DNA of 59,811 nt. Origin: Candidatus Omnitrophota bacterium. GTDB taxonomy: Bacteria; Omnitrophota; Gorgyraeia; Zapsychrales; Fredricksoniimonadaceae. The stretch's first letter is position 1, and the number at the start of each line of letters is the position of its first letter. Made by a program: the position numbers and the translations under genes. The notes under the pieces are model-generated. The model searched no databases. It was given only the letters and a program-made list of their open reading frames with translations, and had not been told where the DNA came from. Shown in pieces: positions 52,763 to 59,811 of the stretch. The stretch lies in contig JABDCU010000009.1 of the NCBI GenBank assembly GCA_013287965.1, positions 1-59,811 of the forward strand, read 5' to 3'.

Positions 52763-54298
52763 ATGCGCGCCGCCGTTATAGATATCGGTTCTTCTTCCAT
52801 CAAGCTTTTGATCGCGGAAAGCCACGGGGAAGATGTCAAGATCATCGAATCACTTAAAAATGTGATCCCTTTGGGCAAGCACGTCTTTATTAAAAACCGC
52901 ATCCCTCAAAGTATTATAAACCAAACTGCCGCTGTATTACAGAAATACAAAGATTCCTTAAAAGAATATGATGTCCAGAATGTCATGGTCATTGCCACGA
53001 CAGCCGTGCGCGAATCGCGTAACCGGGATATTTTCCTAGATACGGTCCTGCGCAAGACCGGTTTTAAAATTGATGTTTTAAATGCGGGGGACGTGGTTTA
53101 TTACATTGATTATTTCTTGAGCCATAAATTAAAGAAGACCTATCCGGTGGACAAGAAAAACCTTTTGATAGCGGAGTTAGGTGCCGGCTCTCTGGACATC
53201 TCGGTGATGGAAAAGGGGCTGACGCTCATGAACATCGGTTTTCCCATCGGAACGCTGCGCTTATCACAATTCATGGAAACCCTGGATGGTTCCCTGCAGG
53301 AAGTGCATGAAGCGACCGAAGAGTATATCGAGAATGAAGTTTTTTTCTTAAAGAAGAACAATGCCAATTTGGACATTGACGACATCATCCTCATTGACGA
53401 GAATTATTCAGTTTTTATCCAGAATGTACTGCCCAATAAACGCCGTGATTCGGATTTCTTCAAATTCAAGGCCACTGAAGCCCAGGAATTGCTGACGCGT
53501 TTAAAGCAGATGAACGTTGAAGAAATTGCCAATACCTACAGTGTTCCCACGGACATTGCCTCGACCATCACAGGCTTTGCCATCATCCTTAACACCTTGT
53601 TCAAATTCAATAAGAATGAGTATGTTTACATCCTCGAGGCTTCTCTGTCCGAAGCCATCCTGGCGCATTTATTGTTTAAATTCGACATGGAGGAGGGTGA
53701 CAATAAGCTAAGCCAGCTGGTGTCAGTGGCGCATTTTCTTTGCCGTAAATACGGCATGGACTTAGACCACTTGAAACACGTAGCATCCATGACAGAGCAG
53801 CTTTTTGACGCTTTCAAGGACATCTTGGGTTTGGAAGAGAAAGACCGTTTGTATCTTCTTCTGGCTTCTTATCTGCACGATATAGGGATGTTTGTCAATA
53901 ACCGTTCGCACCACAAGCATAGCGAATACATCATCAGCTCTTTGAATTTATTCAGGCTCACCGAGCACGAGATCAATATCATCGCCTGTATTGCCCGCTA
54001 TCATAGGCGTTCAGCGCCTTTAAAGACCCACTTGTTATACAATTCTTTGGCATCTGCCGAGCAGATCCTGGTGCAGAAATTAAGCGCTCTTTTACGCATC
54101 GCCAATTCTCTGGACCGTTCGCATAAGCAAAAGGTCAAAAAGCTGGAAGTCAAATTCAATGCCGCAGGGGATGCGACCATCGTGGCGTATACGCACGAGA
54201 ATTTCTTGTTGGAAAAAGAGAACTTTTTGGAGAAGAAGGAACTGTTCGAGGAGATTACAGGTAACAAATTGACGTTGACAGTAAGGACTCAGGATTAA
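52763..54298 (+). CDS. ppx: Ppx/GppA-family protein with C-terminal HD domain
   Basis: AVIDIGSSSIKL, IATTAVRE, GTLRL, LHDIG, HHKHS, RYHRR; upstream of ppk1. Confidence 0.85.
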   Translation: MRAAVIDIGSSSIKLLIAESHGEDVKIIESLKNVIPLGKHVFIKNRIPQSIINQTAAVLQKYKDSLKEYDVQNVMVIATTAVRESRNRDIFLDTVLRKTGFKIDVLNAGDVVYYIDYFLSHKLKKTYPVDKKNLLIAELGAGSLDISVMEKGLTLMNIGFPIGTLRLSQFMETLDGSLQEVHEATEEYIENEVFFLKKNNANLDIDDIILIDENYSVFIQNVLPNKRRDSDFFKFKATEAQELLTRLKQMNVEEIANTYSVPTDIASTITGFAIILNTLFKFNKNEYVYILEASLSEAILAHLLFKFDMEEGDNKLSQLVSVAHFLCRKYGMDLDHLKHVASMTEQLFDAFKDILGLEEKDRLYLLLASYLHDIGMFVNNRSHHKHSEYIISSLNLFRLTEHEINIIACIARYHRRSAPLKTHLLYNSLASAEQILVQKLSALLRIANSLDRSHKQKVKKLEVKFNAAGDATIVAYTHENFLLEKENFLEKKELFEEITGNKLTLTVRTQD

Positions 54299-54463
54299 AC
54301 AGGTTTTGGAAACAATTTTTGAAGACCACTGTTGTCCCGCCAATCTTCGACACCGATTCAAAAACACAGCCCGAAGGGCGTTGTGTTTCTGAAAGATTAG
54401 AAAAGATTGGCGGAAAAAGACAACTCGTGGTCAAAAAAATTCGTTTCCAAAACATGTTTCATC
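54293..54463. repeat. 171 bp long bulged palindrome filling the ppx-ppk1 gap
   Basis: Terminal arms pair at 19/21; inner blocks GACCAC/GTGGTC, GTTGTC/GACAAC, CCGCCAATCTT/AAGATTGGCGG; apex GCCC-GAA-GGGC. Confidence 0.8.
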
Positions 54464-54464
54464 T

Positions 54465-56498
54465 ATGAATAATACTATGGAAACTAAAGAGAAATTTATA
54501 CATCGCGATCTAAGCTGGCTGGAGTTTAACCGCCGGGTCTTGGAAGAGGCTGCTGATGAACATAATCCGCTTTTAGAGCGCATTAAATTCCTGGCTATTT
54601 TTACCAGCAATCTCGACGAGTTTTTCATGGTCAGGATGTCAGGGGCCCATAAGCTTTTGGCTTCCGGTTACAATAAGCGCGACCAATTTGGTTTTTATCC
54701 CCAGGAACTCTTCGCGGAGATCAAAACACGCACCGACGATCTGGTGAAGAAATTCTATGAGGTCTATGAAGGCCCTATCAGGGACGCTTTGGAAAAGGAA
54801 AAGATCTATATCAAAAAACCTGAAGGCTTAAGTCTGGAACAAAAAAAATACGTGCAGCGTTTTTTTGATACCACTCTTTATCCGATCATCACCCCCATGG
54901 CGGTCGATGGCGGCCATCCTTTTCCGGTGCTGCCTTCGCGTACCATTGCTTTCGCGGCCAACATCATCCGTTCTGAAAAAAACCATCTGGCCATTATTCC
55001 CATCCCGAAATCCGTGCCCCGTTTATTGAAAGTCCCGGCGGAAGGCGAGGAGTCGGTGTATGTGCTGACGGATTATCTGATCAAAGAGAATTTGGGGCAA
55101 TTTTTTAAAGGTTATAAGATCCAGGATGCATCGATCTTCAGGGTGCTGCGTGATAGTGAGCTGGAAGTTGATGAAGGTTTTGCGCCGGATCTCCTTAAAG
55201 CCCTGGAGAAAGAACTGAAAAAGCGCTCGAGCGCCAAGGCGGTGTATTTGCAGATGCAGGAAGGGACAACGCCGGAGCTTTTGGAGGTTTTGTGTAACGG
55301 GATTGATTTTCCCAAAGAAGAGGTGGTGTTTACCGCCTCGGACCTGGACCTGAATTTTCTTTACGACCTGTCCGCGTCAACGGACAAGCCGCAGTTGCGT
55401 TTCTCCAGCTTCACACCTGCCAAATCCGTTTATGAGAATATTTTTGATAAGATCAAGGATGAGGATTTTATTATCCACGTGCCTTTCCAGTCTTTTATGC
55501 CGACCTGTGAACTCATCGCTGCGGCGGCCAAAGACCCGGATGTTTTAGCTATTAAGATGACGCTTTATCGCACCAATGAGGATTCAGCCATTATCAAGGC
55601 CCTGATGGAGGCAGCCAAGAACCGTAAGCAGGTCACGGTGGTCGTTGAGATCAAGGCCCGGTTTGAAGAAGAAAAGAATATCCAGTGGTCGCGCGAATTA
55701 GAGCAGGCCGGCTGTCACGTGATCTATGGGATCGCGGGCCTTAAGATCCACTCAAAGATGAGCTTGATTGTGCGCAAGGAAGAAGGCCGCATCCGGCGTT
55801 ACGTGCATTTATCGACGGGAAATTACAATGAAAAAACAGCCAATGTTTACACGGACATCGGGTTTTTTACGTGCAATGATGATTTTGCCCGCGACATCGC
55901 GGATGTGTTTAACGTCATCACCGGCTATTCCCTGCCCAGTCCCTGGAAAAGGGTCATCTCATCCCCGCATGACCTGCGTAAATATTTCTTTGACCTGATC
56001 GACAAGGAGATCGAAAACCAGCAGGCGCACAAGAATGGTTTGATCATTGTCAAAATGAACGCCCTGGAAGATGTCCAAATTATTGAGAAATTGTACGCGG
56101 CTTCCAATGCCGGTGTTAAGATCAGGATGATCGTGCGCGGTGTTTGTTCCCTGGTGCCGGGGGTGGAAGGTTTAAGCGAGAACATTGAAGTGCGCAGCAT
56201 CGTGGGCCGTTTCCTGGAGCATTCACGTGTTTTTTATTTTAACAATAATGGTAATGGCCGTGTCTTTTTGTCGTCGGCAGACTGGATGACCCGTAATTTT
56301 GACCGCCGCATTGAGCTTTTGTTTGAGATCACCAAGCCTGAGATCAAATCTCACGTGCAGTTTATCCTGGACAGCTATTTAAAAGACACCCGTAAAGCCA
56401 GGGCTTTAAGGAGCGATCGCAGTTACAGCCGCATTAAAAAAGAAGGCGGCGCGGCTTTTGACGTGCAGGAATATTTTATCAATCATTATACAAGATGA
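54465..56498 (+). CDS. ppk1: Polyphosphate kinase 1
   Basis: RDLSWLEFNRRVL, NLDEFFMVR, IKMTLYR, LKIHSK, HLSTGNYN, GRFLEHSR, SADWMTRN. Confidence 0.97.
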   Translation: MNNTMETKEKFIHRDLSWLEFNRRVLEEAADEHNPLLERIKFLAIFTSNLDEFFMVRMSGAHKLLASGYNKRDQFGFYPQELFAEIKTRTDDLVKKFYEVYEGPIRDALEKEKIYIKKPEGLSLEQKKYVQRFFDTTLYPIITPMAVDGGHPFPVLPSRTIAFAANIIRSEKNHLAIIPIPKSVPRLLKVPAEGEESVYVLTDYLIKENLGQFFKGYKIQDASIFRVLRDSELEVDEGFAPDLLKALEKELKKRSSAKAVYLQMQEGTTPELLEVLCNGIDFPKEEVVFTASDLDLNFLYDLSASTDKPQLRFSSFTPAKSVYENIFDKIKDEDFIIHVPFQSFMPTCELIAAAAKDPDVLAIKMTLYRTNEDSAIIKALMEAAKNRKQVTVVVEIKARFEEEKNIQWSRELEQAGCHVIYGIAGLKIHSKMSLIVRKEEGRIRRYVHLSTGNYNEKTANVYTDIGFFTCNDDFARDIADVFNVITGYSLPSPWKRVISSPHDLRKYFFDLIDKEIENQQAHKNGLIIVKMNALEDVQIIEKLYAASNAGVKIRMIVRGVCSLVPGVEGLSENIEVRSIVGRFLEHSRVFYFNNNGNGRVFLSSADWMTRNFDRRIELLFEITKPEIKSHVQFILDSYLKDTRKARALRSDRSYSRIKKEGGAAFDVQEYFINHYTR

Positions 56499-57451
56499 AC
56501 TATTACATCGGTCTCGACATAGGCGGTACCAAGATCGCCGGGGCTTTGGTTTCAGCCTCGGGCAAGGTCCTGACCCGCACCAAAACATCCACTCCCAAGA
56601 AGGTCAAGCCCAAAGATATTTACACTTGTATAACTGATGCCATTGATGAGCTGGTCCATTCGGGTGGTGTTAAATACGCGTATATTAAAGGTATCGGGGT
56701 TGGTGTTCCCGGTATTGTGGACACCCGTAATAATCATATTTTGGCAGCTCCGAATATCGCGCTTACCGGTTTTCCTTTAAGTGCTTCGTTAAAACGTAAA
56801 TTTCGAATGCGGGTGGTGATGGCCAATGATGTCAATGCCGGGCTTTTAGGAGAAGCTTGGCTGGGTGCTGCCAAAGGACTATCGCATGTCATTGGTATCT
56901 TTCCGGGTACCGGTGTCGGAGGGGCGGTCATCAGCGACGGTAAATTGCTTTTAGGCGCCCAGGGTGCTGCCACGGAATTGGGCCATGTGATCGTGAGCAT
57001 CGATGGACCGCTGTGCCATTGCGGCAATCGCGGGTGCCTGGAAGCGCTGACCAGCCGCTGGGCCATTGAACGCGATATCCGTTTGGCTGTCAAAGCCGGA
57101 CGAAAGACGATCATTGCCAAGCTCAATGACGGCAAATTGGACACGATCAAAAGCAGGGTTTTAAAAGAAGCGCTGAGTAAAAATGACGCGGTGGTCAAAT
57201 CAGTCATTACCAAAGCCGCGACCGTTTTGGGCAAGACAGCTGTTTCTTTAAACCATACTTTTAATCCCCAGGCTATTATTTTTGGCGGGGGGGTGATCAA
57301 GGCCTGCGGGGACTTTATCCTGCCTATTGTAGCCAAAGAACTTAACGCAGACCCTTTCTTTAAAAAGTTCAACACCTGCCGCATTTTACCCTCCAAATTA
57401 GGGGACGACGCCGTACTCCTGGGCGCCGCCCGCTTAGTCCAACAGCCCTAA
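56495..57451 (+). CDS. ROK-family sugar kinase (glucokinase-like)
   Basis: GLDIGGTK, NDVNA, GTGVGG, ELGH, CHCGNRGCLE, GGGV; ATGA overlap with ppk1. Confidence 0.9.
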   Translation: MNYYIGLDIGGTKIAGALVSASGKVLTRTKTSTPKKVKPKDIYTCITDAIDELVHSGGVKYAYIKGIGVGVPGIVDTRNNHILAAPNIALTGFPLSASLKRKFRMRVVMANDVNAGLLGEAWLGAAKGLSHVIGIFPGTGVGGAVISDGKLLLGAQGAATELGHVIVSIDGPLCHCGNRGCLEALTSRWAIERDIRLAVKAGRKTIIAKLNDGKLDTIKSRVLKEALSKNDAVVKSVITKAATVLGKTAVSLNHTFNPQAIIFGGGVIKACGDFILPIVAKELNADPFFKKFNTCRILPSKLGDDAVLLGAARLVQQP

Positions 57452-57508
57452 GCTCCAAAACAGCTTTGCCTTGTTTTCCTTTATACAATATGGCATACTT
57501 CCTATATC

Positions 57509-59811
57509 ATGCGGAAAATACGAAAAGCCATTGCCATCGTTGTTTTGGCGGCTTTTATTACAACTTCGGCCCATAATCCGGCTTATGCCCAATTATCCCA
57601 GGAGCCTTTACCTGCGCCTGGGATAATGATTCATTTAAGTCAGGAATTTACGCCTGCGCATTTGACGGGTTTGACCATCCACCCGGACAATGCCCTTCAA
57701 TTCGATTTTCTCATCCACCGCGGGGATGAGCCTTTAACTGGTCCTCAAAAACGGCAAGAATACAAAAAATTAGTCAAATATTTCCTCGCTTCATTGACCA
57801 TACCTGATGAAGACCAGTGGGTCAACTTGTCTCCCTATGAAAAGGACCGTATTATCAAGGATGATTTTGGCAAGACCGAAATGGGCCGTGACCTTCTGAG
57901 TCAAGATTACATGCTCAAGCAAATCACTTCAAGTTTGATCTATCCGGAAGATGGTCTGGGCAAGAAATTTTGGGAAAGGATCTACGAGCGCGCTTGGAGC
58001 GAATATCACACCACTCAAATTCCAGTGAATACTTTTAACAAGGTCTGGATTATCCCAGACCAAGCCATTGTCTATGAAAGCGGCAATACCGCCTATATCC
58101 TCAAAAGCCATTTAAAGGTGATGTTAGAAGAGGATTATTTGTCACTTCAAAAACATAACAAAAATAACACCCACTCCATCGACTCCCAGACTATCCGTGA
58201 AATAGTCCTTCCGGCATTAGAGGAAGAAGTTAACGAGGGCAAGAATTTTTCAAACTTGCGGCAAATGTACAGCGGAATGATACTTGCGACTTGGTATAAG
58301 AAAGCTTTGAAAGAGTCCCTTTTAGGAAAAATTTACGCGGACAAAGCCAAGGTCAAGGGTGTTGACCAAGATCCAAAAACCAATGAGGTCATTTATCAGC
58401 GATACTTGAAAGCTTTTAAAAAGGGTGTGTTTAATTATATCAAAGAAGACGTGGACAAATACACCAATGAAGCTATTGCAAGGAAGTATTTCTCCGGTGG
58501 TTTTACGAAAAATACTTTGGTTGATGGAGCAATGATTGTCGTTAAATCTGGGGACAGGGAAACACATTTTTTAAACCCAGAGGAATTTGAAAATGCCAAA
58601 AGAGAAGGATTGAAGTCGGATATTGTATACGTTGTTTTGAACAATTTTTCTAATACTTTAAAGGATGCGTTAGCAGGGCACGGATGGTATCTAAAAGGCG
58701 ACGGCCCCGACGCGGCGATGAGGGCTGATGAAGTGACGGAGATCCAAAGATATGATGAAGAAGTGGTGGGGAGATTAGGTCCCAAGGAAACCGGCCATGC
58801 TTGGCAAGGATATAAAATGGGGGAGATAACTTTTTTTGGCCTGCCATTTAAAGAGGGGATGAATGCGTATGTCTTAGGCATAACATACAAGGGAAAGGAC
58901 CGACGGCTTGTGATTGTCCCAGGTTCCTCAGATCAACTTTCTTATATGCTCGTTCAATTATATCAGGACGGGAATTGTCGGCGAGATATGAAGAGTTTAT
59001 TGCGTCAGGGGAAAACGGATGATGATTTAGCGGACTATTTGGTCAATAGGATTCAAAAGATCATGCAGGTAAATGCTTTTCATAATGGATTTGAGAGTGG
59101 GGTGTTGCGTCAATACGATGATGCTTTGTTAGAAAATGTGTTTCAGAATGTGATGAAGGTTGTTGAAAAAGCGGGGCAGGAAAGGCGTGATTTGATTACC
59201 TACCATAATCCTTATCATTGGAACGAACTTTTACATTTTATTGATGAGTATGTCAAAACACAACCGCTTTCCCAGCAAGCAATAAGGCTTTTACGGGAAG
59301 CTGTATACCGCCATGATGAAGGTTATTATTCAATGCGGACGCCCCACGAGCAAGACAAGTGGCTTTCAGACGGACATGAGAACGTAGCGATGAAAAGGGT
59401 TAAAACAGAAGCTCCTTGTTTTGAAACAGATATTGTCGCATTTTTAATAGACCACACAAAGGTAATTTTTGACCGTCAATTCAATACAGATACATTGAAG
59501 AAACCTGATCTGCCTGCCATCGATGAAATGATGCAGCGTGAGAAGGATGTTTATCTGGATATTGTTGAAAAATTAAATAATGGAAGAAGGGCGTTGAAGG
59601 ATTCTACAATGGATTTTTTGAGGGTGAATTTTCCTCATTGGAGTTCCGAAGATCTGCCTTTTGAAGACCTGCCTTTAATCCGAGATATTCTTGTGGGAGC
59701 CAGGATGATCGCTGTGGCTGACATATACGGCCATGACAGGAATATGGTTCCACTGACCGTCGGCCTGTGGCGGGAATTTGATGTGGAACGAAATCCCGCA
59801 AAACAAGCGAC
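57509..59811 (+). CDS. Large exported multidomain protein (3' partial, at least 767 aa) with an HD-type phosphohydrolase module
   Basis: Manual translation finds no stop from ATG 57509 to the window end. MRKIRKAIAIVVLAAF.. signal peptide; leader domain LVKYFLASLTIP..WVNLSPYEKDRII..GRDLLSQDYMLKQIT..RKYFSGG; then YHNPYH, HDEGY, GHE, IAVADIYG. Confidence 0.85.
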   Translation, partial: MRKIRKAIAIVVLAAFITTSAHNPAYAQLSQEPLPAPGIMIHLSQEFTPAHLTGLTIHPDNALQFDFLIHRGDEPLTGPQKRQEYKKLVKYFLASLTIPDEDQWVNLSPYEKDRIIKDDFGKTEMGRDLLSQDYMLKQITSSLIYPEDGLGKKFWERIYERAWSEYHTTQIPVNTFNKVWIIPDQAIVYESGNTAYILKSHLKVMLEEDYLSLQKHNKNNTHSIDSQTIREIVLPALEEEVNEGKNFSNLRQMYSGMILATWYKKALKESLLGKIYADKAKVKGVDQDPKTNEVIYQRYLKAFKKGVFNYIKEDVDKYTNEAIARKYFSGGFTKNTLVDGAMIVVKSGDRETHFLNPEEFENAKREGLKSDIVYVVLNNFSNTLKDALAGHGWYLKGDGPDAAMRADEVTEIQRYDEEVVGRLGPKETGHAWQGYKMGEITFFGLPFKEGMNAYVLGITYKGKDRRLVIVPGSSDQLSYMLVQLYQDGNCRRDMKSLLRQGKTDDDLADYLVNRIQKIMQVNAFHNGFESGVLRQYDDALLENVFQNVMKVVEKAGQERRDLITYHNPYHWNELLHFIDEYVKTQPLSQQAIRLLREAVYRHDEGYYSMRTPHEQDKWLSDGHENVAMKRVKTEAPCFETDIVAFLIDHTKVIFDRQFNTDTLKKPDLPAIDEMMQREKDVYLDIVEKLNNGRRALKDSTMDFLRVNFPHWSSEDLPFEDLPLIRDILVGARMIAVADIYGHDRNMVPLTVGLWREFDVERNPAKQA

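Follow-up and report, generated by a model that had tools for sequence, protein, structure and literature searches.

The stretch analysed here (the window) is 59,811 nucleotides of a Candidatus Omnitrophota bacterium and constitutes an entire contig, JABDCU010000009.1 (C9), of an assembly of 1.52 Mb in 50 contigs that is 69.5% complete. Near its 3′ end, on the forward strand, an open reading frame (ORF) starts with an ATG at 57509 and continues for 767 codons to 59809, stop-free to the window end; since the window spans the contig from end to end, it is the assembly that truncates the gene. An earlier note on this DNA had pointed out this uninterrupted frame of at least 767 codons, together with a signal peptide, the motifs RKYFSGG, DGAM and DAAM, and a series of HD-domain motifs, and we found each of these in its place. 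The ORF is a genuine member, albeit truncated by the assembly, of a family which, judged on membership and architecture alone, we are highly confident is a very large, Omnitrophota-restricted group of Sec-exported modular carriers. Complete members consist of a cleavable signal peptide, a conserved head of about 300 residues, variable cargo, and a C-terminal tail of about 65 residues; the window ORF has the signal peptide, the homologous head and a cysteine-poor chain. Its features, by window position, are as follows.

57509..57589, + strand: Sec-type signal peptide, residues 1-27, with a basic n-region, a hydrophobic core and an A-x-A site (AYA followed by Q, residues 25-28), read from the translation
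57590..58501, + strand: conserved head, residues 28-331, ending in the invariant RKYFSGG (residues 325-331, nt 58481-58501)
58523..58534, + strand: first junction tag, DGAM, residues 339-342, 8 residues past the head
58535..58708, + strand: spacer module of 58 residues (343-400) between both tags, for which database searches gave no relatives
58709..58720, + strand: second junction tag, DAAM, residues 401-404, codons GAC GCG GCG ATG
58721..59068, + strand: orphan cargo module A, about residues 405-520, no Pfam match
59081..59809, + strand: predicted HD-superfamily domain resembling class I phosphodiesterases (PDEs), residues 525-767, cut about 35 residues short of the domain end; motifs YHNPYH (residues 565-570), RHDEGY (601-606), GHEN (622-625), VADIYG (736-741) and LWREF (753-757)

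A tblastn search of the organism's own genome with the ORF retrieved 24 further loci that match residues 1-335 at 45-66% identity, bearing out the earlier note's statement of a large paralogous Omnitrophota family with variable enzyme cargo; the head is multi-copy and occurs in variable architectures, rather than being a single-copy sequence in a fixed one. One locus, on contig C26, instead matches residues 401-521. Apart from a 283-residue fragment at a contig end (C19), paralog frames range from 464 to more than 3,114 residues, and the 25 paralogs together comprise 38,455 codons, or about 115 kb of the assembly. Several of them run into contig ends, which is a likely cause of the assembly breaks here. 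The head contains 71 invariant columns in 23 aligned sequences, and all aligned paralogs share the same basic, hydrophobic and A-x-A layout at the N-terminus. In a collection of 5.8 billion proteins, residues 28-340 gave 3,470 matches at E<=0.001 among proteins of 421-1343 residues, with E-values down to 2e-172; the best 120 of these relatives are 66-83% identical to the window head. Head relatives are labelled only as 'hypothetical' or Candidatus Omnitrophica bacterium, and their precomputed Pfam domains all lie in the cargo, varying by protein (receiver, HATPase_c, DnaJ, PrmA, HEAT, TPR, LysM, HTH, LMW phosphatase and PP2C). Among 151 sampled genomes of the phylum, a head profile was positive in 15 (14 of the 124 of high quality). 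Many copies are present in both genomes of the organism's own family, in all three genomes from two other families of the order, and in one further genome; the remaining positive genomes carry 1-3 copies, and the other 136 genomes none.

The head matched nothing in Pfam (0 families at E<=1) or NCBIfam. Its predicted structure is of moderate confidence, with a predicted local distance difference test score (pLDDT) of 72.5 and a predicted template modelling score (pTM) of 0.66. Against the PDB it gave no Foldseek match at E<=0.001 (best E 0.09), a best Z of 3.6 among 48,161 chains in a wide VIA-align search, and weak rows for ClyA and NheA, at probabilities below 0.1; the lack of a PDB counterpart is no proof of a new fold. 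A protein atlas queried with the head homologue P0024 returned only 'hypothetical protein' clusters from Omnitrophota (score 0.90).

Two further features of the paralogs were apparent from the head alignment and the surrounding frames. In seven of them (L006, L008, L009, L017, L019, L022 and L023) the head loops hold short in-frame repeated peptides (for example VIPAKAGIQ, SLRGSVTTE and RFRGNDK) at alignment columns of about 260-300 and 360-390, and none of these is present in the window ORF. Two members, at C11:14147-20666 and C19:1-8799, are split: the head ORF stops and a long ORF containing cargo and tail goes on in another frame, with an overlap between the two of about 95 bases in the C11 case. 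A frameshift, decay into a pseudogene or an assembly error might account for each.

At the opposite end of the chain, a hidden Markov model of the roughly 65-residue tail (GGIDxN ... PVI..I.P) identified this element at the end of 19 of the 20 paralogs with an assembled 3′ end, the exception (C4:56867-60574) ending in a divergent version. The tail also ends the second ORFs of the split members on C11 and C19 and four leaderless fragments (C3, C23, C26 and C37), and it is present in most of the foreign homologues among those listed and in the closest homologue of the window cargo, P0122. Scans of the tail-bearing paralogs placed no Pfam family over it. When head and tail of paralog L012 were modelled as separate chains with family alignments, the docking score was 0.78, against 0.00 for the best of three controls, where the mark used is reached by 58 of 80 solved complexes and by 2 of 110 mismatched pairs. 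The docking runs had at least 49% of contacts in common, with a partner pLDDT of at least 48. On the tail side the predicted interface comprises residues 10-28, that is the GGIDxN strand, and on the head side residues 77-85, 106-114, 154-169 and 228-243, which include the invariant WVNLSP and NKVWI segments. The model thus supports, as a prediction and not as proof, docking of the conserved tail on the head; it is silent as to whether this would take place in cis or in trans.

Between these constant ends lies a cargo that differs from one paralog to the next. At least one Pfam family was found at E<=0.001 in 10 of the 23 paralogs scanned, always in the middle of the protein, and the families include HATPase_c, a starch-synthase domain, GNAT, ankyrin, HEAT, cNMP-binding, HAD, GGDEF and methyltransferase, as well as two MutS_V, five PP-binding and PEPCK_N matches and, in one protein, TIM, GAPDH-N, a DeoC aldolase and a full enolase. 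The claim of the earlier note of a variable, normally cytoplasmic enzyme cargo is supported. Its companion claim, that the leader directs export, is not supported for the 300-residue head: export would fall to the short Sec signal peptide, and the head is instead predicted to dock the tail. The protein with these last four matches (L013, C10:1-9343, minus strand) is a member of at least 3,114 residues that combines TIM, the GAPDH N-domain, the DeoC-type aldolase and the complete enolase in one chain with 3 cysteines. Its enolase shares 49% identity with a housekeeping copy encoded separately on C31 (434 bits for the latter against 296 for the cargo copy) and retains the SHRSGETED stretch common to both. 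Another member, L024 (C34:3939-6873, plus strand, cut by the contig end), carries five PP-binding matches, four SAAM tags and an N-terminal piece of PEPCK. Some cargo looks degenerate: the TIM profile is matched only from position 71 onwards and that of HAD_2 from position 46. From their sequences, the cargo modules look like whole captured genes, joined in the lineage of the window by a [D>N]-x-A-M tag.

The cargo-bearing chains are almost devoid of cysteine, which makes up 0.098% of residues in the organism's own paralogs, 0.073% in the 120 homologues and 0.052% in 20 genes from six other genomes, against 1.14% in the genome's other long ORFs, a depletion of about 12-fold; 75 of 145 members contain none. 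The window ORF, with 2 cysteines in 767 residues (0.26%), departs less from the background than does the average member (0.07-0.10%). Cysteine purging is typical of passengers that are kept unfolded or disulfide-free in an oxidising periplasm, and it is the main argument by which real export is favoured here.

The tag itself is strongly enriched in the family. The 25 paralogs contain 62 DxAM, where 200 shuffles gave 3.7 (maximum 10), and the 120 foreign homologues contain 264, where 100 shuffles gave 11.8 (maximum 23); 106 of the 120 have at least one, and overall the enrichment is about 20-fold. Its density is 1.61 per 1000 residues, compared with 0.099 in the genome's other ORFs of at least 150 residues, a 16-fold difference measured against a background that still includes unrecognised family fragments. 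The first position is preferentially D (20-fold), then N (9-fold) and S (3.5-fold), and positions 3 and 4 admit only A and M, respectively. An unbiased scan for gapped 3- and 4-mers in 12 genes of two same-family genomes also ranked D.AM first (40 occurrences against 1.3 expected, in 12 of 12 genes). Across the 120 homologues, the first tag mostly lies about 10-90 residues after the head, at residues 340-420, and a tag often immediately precedes the tail.

The position of the tag relative to the modules agrees with the earlier suggestion that it falls at domain junctions. We compared tags with 125 local homology blocks shared between cargo regions and found that 30 of 50 block starts lie within 15 residues of a tag (7.6 +/- 2.4 expected, maximum 14 in 300 randomisations), as do 31 of 88 block ends (13.0 +/- 3.3), while tags inside blocks are depleted (24 of 276 against 43.4 +/- 4.3). 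None of 37 [DN]xAM sites fell within a Pfam match, where 5.8 were expected. Individual cases show the same arrangement: the tblastn match between the window ORF and the C26 locus starts exactly at DAAM; in the C10 paralog the M of an NKAM tag stands 5 residues before Enolase_N profile position 3; and on C34 the best of the five acyl-carrier matches (residues 654-721) ends 4 residues before SAAM at residue 726, with the sequence after each of the first two SAAM tags resembling the start of a free-standing acyl carrier protein. Of the 54 hydrophobic, signal-like segments that lie internally in 145 family proteins, 20 begin 0-35 residues past a tag (4.2 expected); many of these segments read like signal, lipoprotein or twin-arginine translocation (Tat) peptides, and several tags precede RRxFL Tat-like peptides. 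Taken together, these sequence comparisons indicate that the M of the tag marks the beginnings of captured modules.

At the nucleotide level, the DNA flanking the tag is unconserved and GAT and GAC are equally used for its aspartate, which led us to reject a simple, pure DNA recombination site. The remaining codons are biased all the same. At 101 cargo sites the alanine is encoded by GCG in 61 (24.1 expected), the third base of the x codon is G in 52 (23.8 expected) and an A follows the ATG in 53 (31.6 expected), and the same bias recurs at 53 sites in six other genomes (31 GCG codons where 12.7 were expected, 32 G where 12.4 were, and 30 A where 16.0 were). A serine in the first position is encoded by AGY at all 25 such sites here, mostly within a few internally duplicated proteins; as a rule this was discarded, since it was not replicated at the three SxAM sites found elsewhere, two of which use TCA. 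Internal translation initiation at the tag was likewise rejected as the principal reading: words resembling a Shine-Dalgarno (SD) sequence precede 0.10 of tag ATGs, compared with 0.40 for real starts and 0.21 for the remaining internal ATGs, and so are depleted there. With constraint on residues and a bias among synonymous codons both evident from the sequences, the tag appears to be neither purely a peptide signal nor purely a DNA site.

The tag is also limited to a lineage. Each of the 12 genes sampled in the two same-family genomes has 2-8 DxAM, whereas the 8 genes sampled in four genomes of other families retain both head and tail with neither DxAM nor any substitute tag. Because these genes retain both ends without it, the tag seems dispensable for whatever role head and tail play, and it is, to judge by the genomes sampled, a lineage-specific feature of the same family and not intrinsic to the carrier system. 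The earlier proposal that DxAM marks processing or recombination junctions is thus upheld in so far as the tag is a real junction marker, and has to be qualified in that it belongs neither to the carrier system as such nor to a single level of signal.

Turning to the cargo of the window ORF, an exhaustive search of 1.84 billion representatives with residues 340-767 gave 21 matches at E<=0.001, one to module A and 20 to residues ~530-765. The only relatives of module A are C26:671-1039 (47% identity) and P0123 (E 7e-20, about residues 411-520), a protein of 280 residues whose first 12 are identical to the C26 frame directly past the DAAM on that contig. That frame (C26:500-1519, plus strand, 340 residues) consists of a DAAM tag, the module A copy and a tail, with no in-frame head upstream. 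Homologues of the C-terminal domain occur mostly within longer proteins of 851-7,391 residues, a few standing alone at 241-529 residues, and 3 of the 21 matches carry the window head (P0122, P0125 and P0134). In P0122, of 851 residues, the order is head, DFAM, HD-like domain, about 120 residues, DPAM and tail, with 43-48% identity to the window ORF in the HD-like domain.

An alignment of 14 sequences at 24-47% identity shows H566, H570, H602-D603, H623 and D738 to be invariant (alignment columns H42, H46, H78, D79, H99 and D214), and these are the predicted metal ligands, encoded at nt 59204, 59216, 59312-59317, 59375 and 59720; the homologues continue about 35 residues past the last residue of the window. 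The predicted structure of the domain is confident (pLDDT 86.7, pTM 0.88). Among the 48,161 chains compared with VIA-align, 24 reached Z>=8, and class I PDE catalytic domains took ranks 1-11, headed by PDE9A (2yy2_A, Z 11.5, root-mean-square deviation 3.5, 176 residues aligned), LmjPDEB1 (11.0) and PDE7A (10.7), followed by PPX/GppA, HD hydrolases, YhaM, HD-GYP, Rel, PhnZ, SAMHD1 and Cas3-HD. Because the list of fold matches is so uniform and the ligand motif is conserved, we think it very probable on the basis of the model that the domain has an HD-type fold, and we read it as a putatively active, divergent, PDE-like HD phosphohydrolase. In this respect the earlier assignment to an HD/PDEase-like domain stands on its H..H..HD..H..D motif and on the predicted fold, and is not supported by Pfam. 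Within the superfamily, the all-helical fold and the succession of H-N-x-x-H, HD and a distal D are shared with class I PDEs, of which we take the YHNxxH start motif to be typical. Unlike those enzymes, which have the signature HD-x-x-H-x-G-x-x-N, the domain reads EGYY after the HD pair, without the second histidine. The domain is accordingly not filed under PF00233, which gave no hit and whose PDE signature is not kept (HDEGYY), nor under PF01966, which likewise gave no hit. A cNMP-binding domain occurs in 4 of the 14 proteins that share the domain, and a PDB sequence-profile search with the 14-sequence alignment matched only these flanking cNMP-binding domains, downstream of the HD-like part, and not the domain itself.

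We propose the following working for the family. Sec would carry the chain out of the cytoplasm (step 1), and the cysteine-purged cargo would then remain disulfide-free for further translocation or display (step 2). The GGIDxN strand of the tail would dock on the WVNLSP and NKVWI surface of the head, the constant ends thereby forming one sorting or anchoring handle (step 3). At the junction tag, processing specific to this lineage would release modules that begin with its M (step 4), and the HD/PDE-like enzyme of the window ORF would hydrolyse a phosphoester signalling nucleotide outside the cytoplasm of the producer, whether in the periplasm, at the surface or in a partner cell (step 5). Taken as a whole, with the family, its architecture, the HD cargo and these steps, this is the best explanation we can offer and one that we would, on balance, accept by a modest degree; steps 2 to 5, taken singly, are each more tentative, ranging from possible to evenly poised.

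A number of observations weigh against this account. Cleavage, export, localisation and delivery to another cell are all steps that we infer from sequence. The synonymous bias at the tag fits a role at the nucleic-acid level at least as well as a protease site, and genes from outside the family of the window organism keep both ends without DxAM. In the window ORF there is no tag between module A and the HD domain, an NVAM lies inside the HD domain at residue 625, and the tail would be located beyond the assembly end. The tail fold is uncertain in the complex model, with a pLDDT under 50 in one run, and the model used alignments of our own. In this genome, which is 70% complete, TIM was found solely within cargo. 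The neighbourhoods of the 25 paralogs show no recurrent dedicated protease or exporter gene. For the HD domain, no Foldseek match reached E<=0.001, the top rows being PDEs and HD proteins; helical models can attain a VIA-align Z of about 13 through a common arrangement without kinship; and there were 0 Pfam families at E<=1 (neither PF00233 nor PF01966) and none in NCBIfam above its cut-off, the domain being too divergent for the curated HD sequence models.

Three of the 25 paralogs have related ABC-exporter-like genes no more than 5 kb away (C13:35063-36976, C16:19649-21313 and C22:14390-16075), which is too few to call a partner.

The codon data bear most directly on a possible alternative, which we hold to be doubtful, that the tag has no post-translational role and is just the DNA-level footprint of cassette capture or module duplication, in which a recipient GAY NNG GCG was joined to a donor ATG. 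This would account for the synonymous bias (GCG at 61 of 101 sites and G in the x codon at 52, repeated in the six other genomes), for the restriction of the tag to a lineage, for the M at module starts, and for the AGY serines (25 of 25), AGY being one transition from AAY or GAY. However, D, A and M are kept across paralogs that are only 45-66% identical, with GAT and GAC equally used and flanking DNA unconserved; glycine (GGY), just as near in mutational terms, shows no enrichment; and the AGY pattern is limited to a few internally duplicated proteins and unseen elsewhere. A footprint of this kind is, moreover, compatible with an additional processing role.

Export without delivery is unlikely in our estimation, though it shares much with the proposed scheme: the head-tail handle would anchor uncleaved chains on the cell's own envelope, or link fibres head to tail. 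The docking model that passed its controls, Sec export and the cysteine purge would suit such surface display, and no injection machinery recurs beside the genes, but the enolase, acyl carrier protein (ACP), MutS ATPase, histidine-kinase ATPase and GGDEF cargo need cytoplasmic cofactors, and docking in cis and in trans is indistinguishable here.

A further reading, which we consider rather improbable, is that each gene works as an operon in one frame, giving a cytoplasmic polyprotein or a message with several starts. A cytoplasmic protease, ribosomal skipping or initiation at the internal ATG of the tag would split the modules apart ahead of export, so that the enzymes stay inside and those modules with a signal, lipoprotein or Tat peptide of their own are exported. 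The M of the tag at captured-module starts fits this, as do the 20 of 54 internal signal-like segments just past a tag, the RRxFL Tat-like peptides after several tags, the over-represented A after the ATG (53 of 101 against 31.6) and the cytoplasmic type of the cargo enzymes, which need ATP or NAD and in the case of TIM occur only as cargo. The 12- to 20-fold depletion of cysteine across the cargo, on the other hand, would have no reason in the cytoplasm; a Sec signal peptide starts every member; SD-like words are scarcer at tag ATGs (0.10) than at real starts (0.40) or other internal ATGs (0.21); a separate housekeeping enolase scores better than the cargo copy; and stop codons between modules are absent. 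That the C-terminal domain of the window ORF is a helical scaffold or pseudoenzyme rather than an active HD hydrolase is similarly improbable, since the lack of Pfam, NCBIfam and Foldseek hits and the degenerate look of the TIM and HAD_2 cargo are set against a ligand motif invariant in 14 divergent sequences and listed VIA-align rows that are mostly HD enzymes and are headed by class I PDEs.

Returning to the proposed export, clasp and processing of modular carriers, several known systems offer partial precedents. MARTX toxins consist of one exported chain with several unrelated effector modules between constant delivery regions and short processing sites between the modules. The present family resembles them in having a multi-module exported chain between constant regions with short junction sites. 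Unlike MARTX, which uses type I secretion, it has a Sec signal and whole housekeeping-type enzymes, its processing is only proposed, and the Pfam hits at E<=0.001 in the window ORF and 23 paralogs include neither RTX repeats nor a cysteine protease domain. Polymorphic toxins have junction motifs such as VENN in CdiA and PxxxxDPxGL in Rhs proteins, and here too a constant N-terminal part is followed by swappable cargo behind a short conserved motif; in contrast to those toxins, the carriers contain several tags in each protein, end in a constant tail, lack a small gene that recurs next to them and have a cargo that is not toxin-like. Type IX secretion cargo combines an N-terminal Sec signal with a C-terminal sorting domain, a layout paralleled by the Sec signal and the conserved C-terminal block of about 65-80 residues on very diverse passengers, yet the carriers differ in their conserved 300-residue head with its predicted tail-binding, and Pfam scans of the tail-bearing paralogs gave no family of the Por_Secre_tail type. 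Flagellin has constant N- and C-terminal segments that pack against each other, with a hypervariable region between them, and the constant ends, variable middle and predicted packing of both ends of the carriers correspond to this; unlike flagellin, the carriers have a Sec signal and a middle made up of several complete enzymes, and no flagellin family is among their Pfam hits.

Omnitrophota are widespread, tiny and probably host-dependent bacteria, and their long exported multi-enzyme proteins had been noted before, unexplained. The preprint of Nielsen & Lui (2026; 10.64898/2026.06.07.730766) describes long Omnitrophota proteins with signal peptides that are tiled with cytoplasm-type domains (HATPase_c, methyltransferase, GNAT, HAD, HD, starch synthase and receiver), and that of West-Roberts et al. 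(2023; 10.1101/2023.11.21.568195) proposes cleavage into several products and states that the cleavage points are unknown. The giants in both preprints come from the same phylum and have at least 10,000 residues, where members of the present family have 0.5-3 thousand. We found no description of the head, the tail or the junction tag in the literature searched, which included passages of both preprints, and a search combining 'omnitrophota' with 'polyprotein' returned no papers. To those accounts the present analysis adds the PDE-like HD cargo, the boundary statistics, the M at module starts and the synonymous-codon signature, as well as the lineage restriction of the tag, the control with the housekeeping copy and the head-tail model. 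The HD domain would represent a rare, uncurated branch of its superfamily, given 21 relatives at E<=0.001 in 1.84 billion, one of them of module A.

A more far-reaching idea, which we put forward as speculative and improbable, is that gene capture in one Omnitrophota lineage is codon-precise: whole genes would be taken at their own start codon behind a templated GAY-NNG-GCG into exported carriers whose constant ends clasp each other, in cis or head to tail from one molecule to the next, and the same tag would be the cut site for their release. If so, any cytoplasmic enzyme, once purged of cysteine, could be made into deliverable cargo for use outside the cell or within a partner. Should the tag prove to be a cut site, it would supply the missing cleavage points of long Omnitrophota proteins and make their computational splitting and metaproteome searches possible; should it be a capture junction, it would point to a novel mechanism of gene fusion. 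Leads to an export or display route yet to be described come from the cysteine purge and the predicted head-tail clasp, and the family, with thousands of members of manageable length and a defined head, tail and tag, offers a tractable entry.

Around the window ORF, the minus-strand ORFs are short shadows of 60-151 residues, Rfam gave 0 matches in 54000-59811, and a promoter and terminator scan of the locus showed nothing informative. The 3′ continuation was sought in several ways and not recovered: the final 1,012 bases match no other contig except for a 76% paralogous stretch on C26; the P0122 region past the HD-like domain retrieves only tails and no continuation; there is no homologue of residues 401-767 among proteins of 421-1343 residues; and a search of metagenome contigs gave no relative. 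Because its closest cargo homologue, P0122, totals 851 residues, the window gene may need only about 200 more residues, or it may extend further.

Upstream on the same strand, two ORFs at 54465-56498 and 56495-57451 overlap by 4 bases (ATGA); from their translations alone we take the first to be polyphosphate-kinase-like and the second to be a ROK-type sugar-kinase-like gene, the latter separated by 57 bases from the start codon of the carrier. The fold matches of the cargo include PPX/GppA C-terminal domains (Z 9.3-9.7), and the proximity of a polyphosphate-kinase-like gene is maybe a coincidence. Elsewhere in the assembly, the whole of contig C20 (31,796 bases) is a single open frame of at least 10,517 residues, open at both ends; this giant gene, which has only 3 DxAM, is of a different kind.

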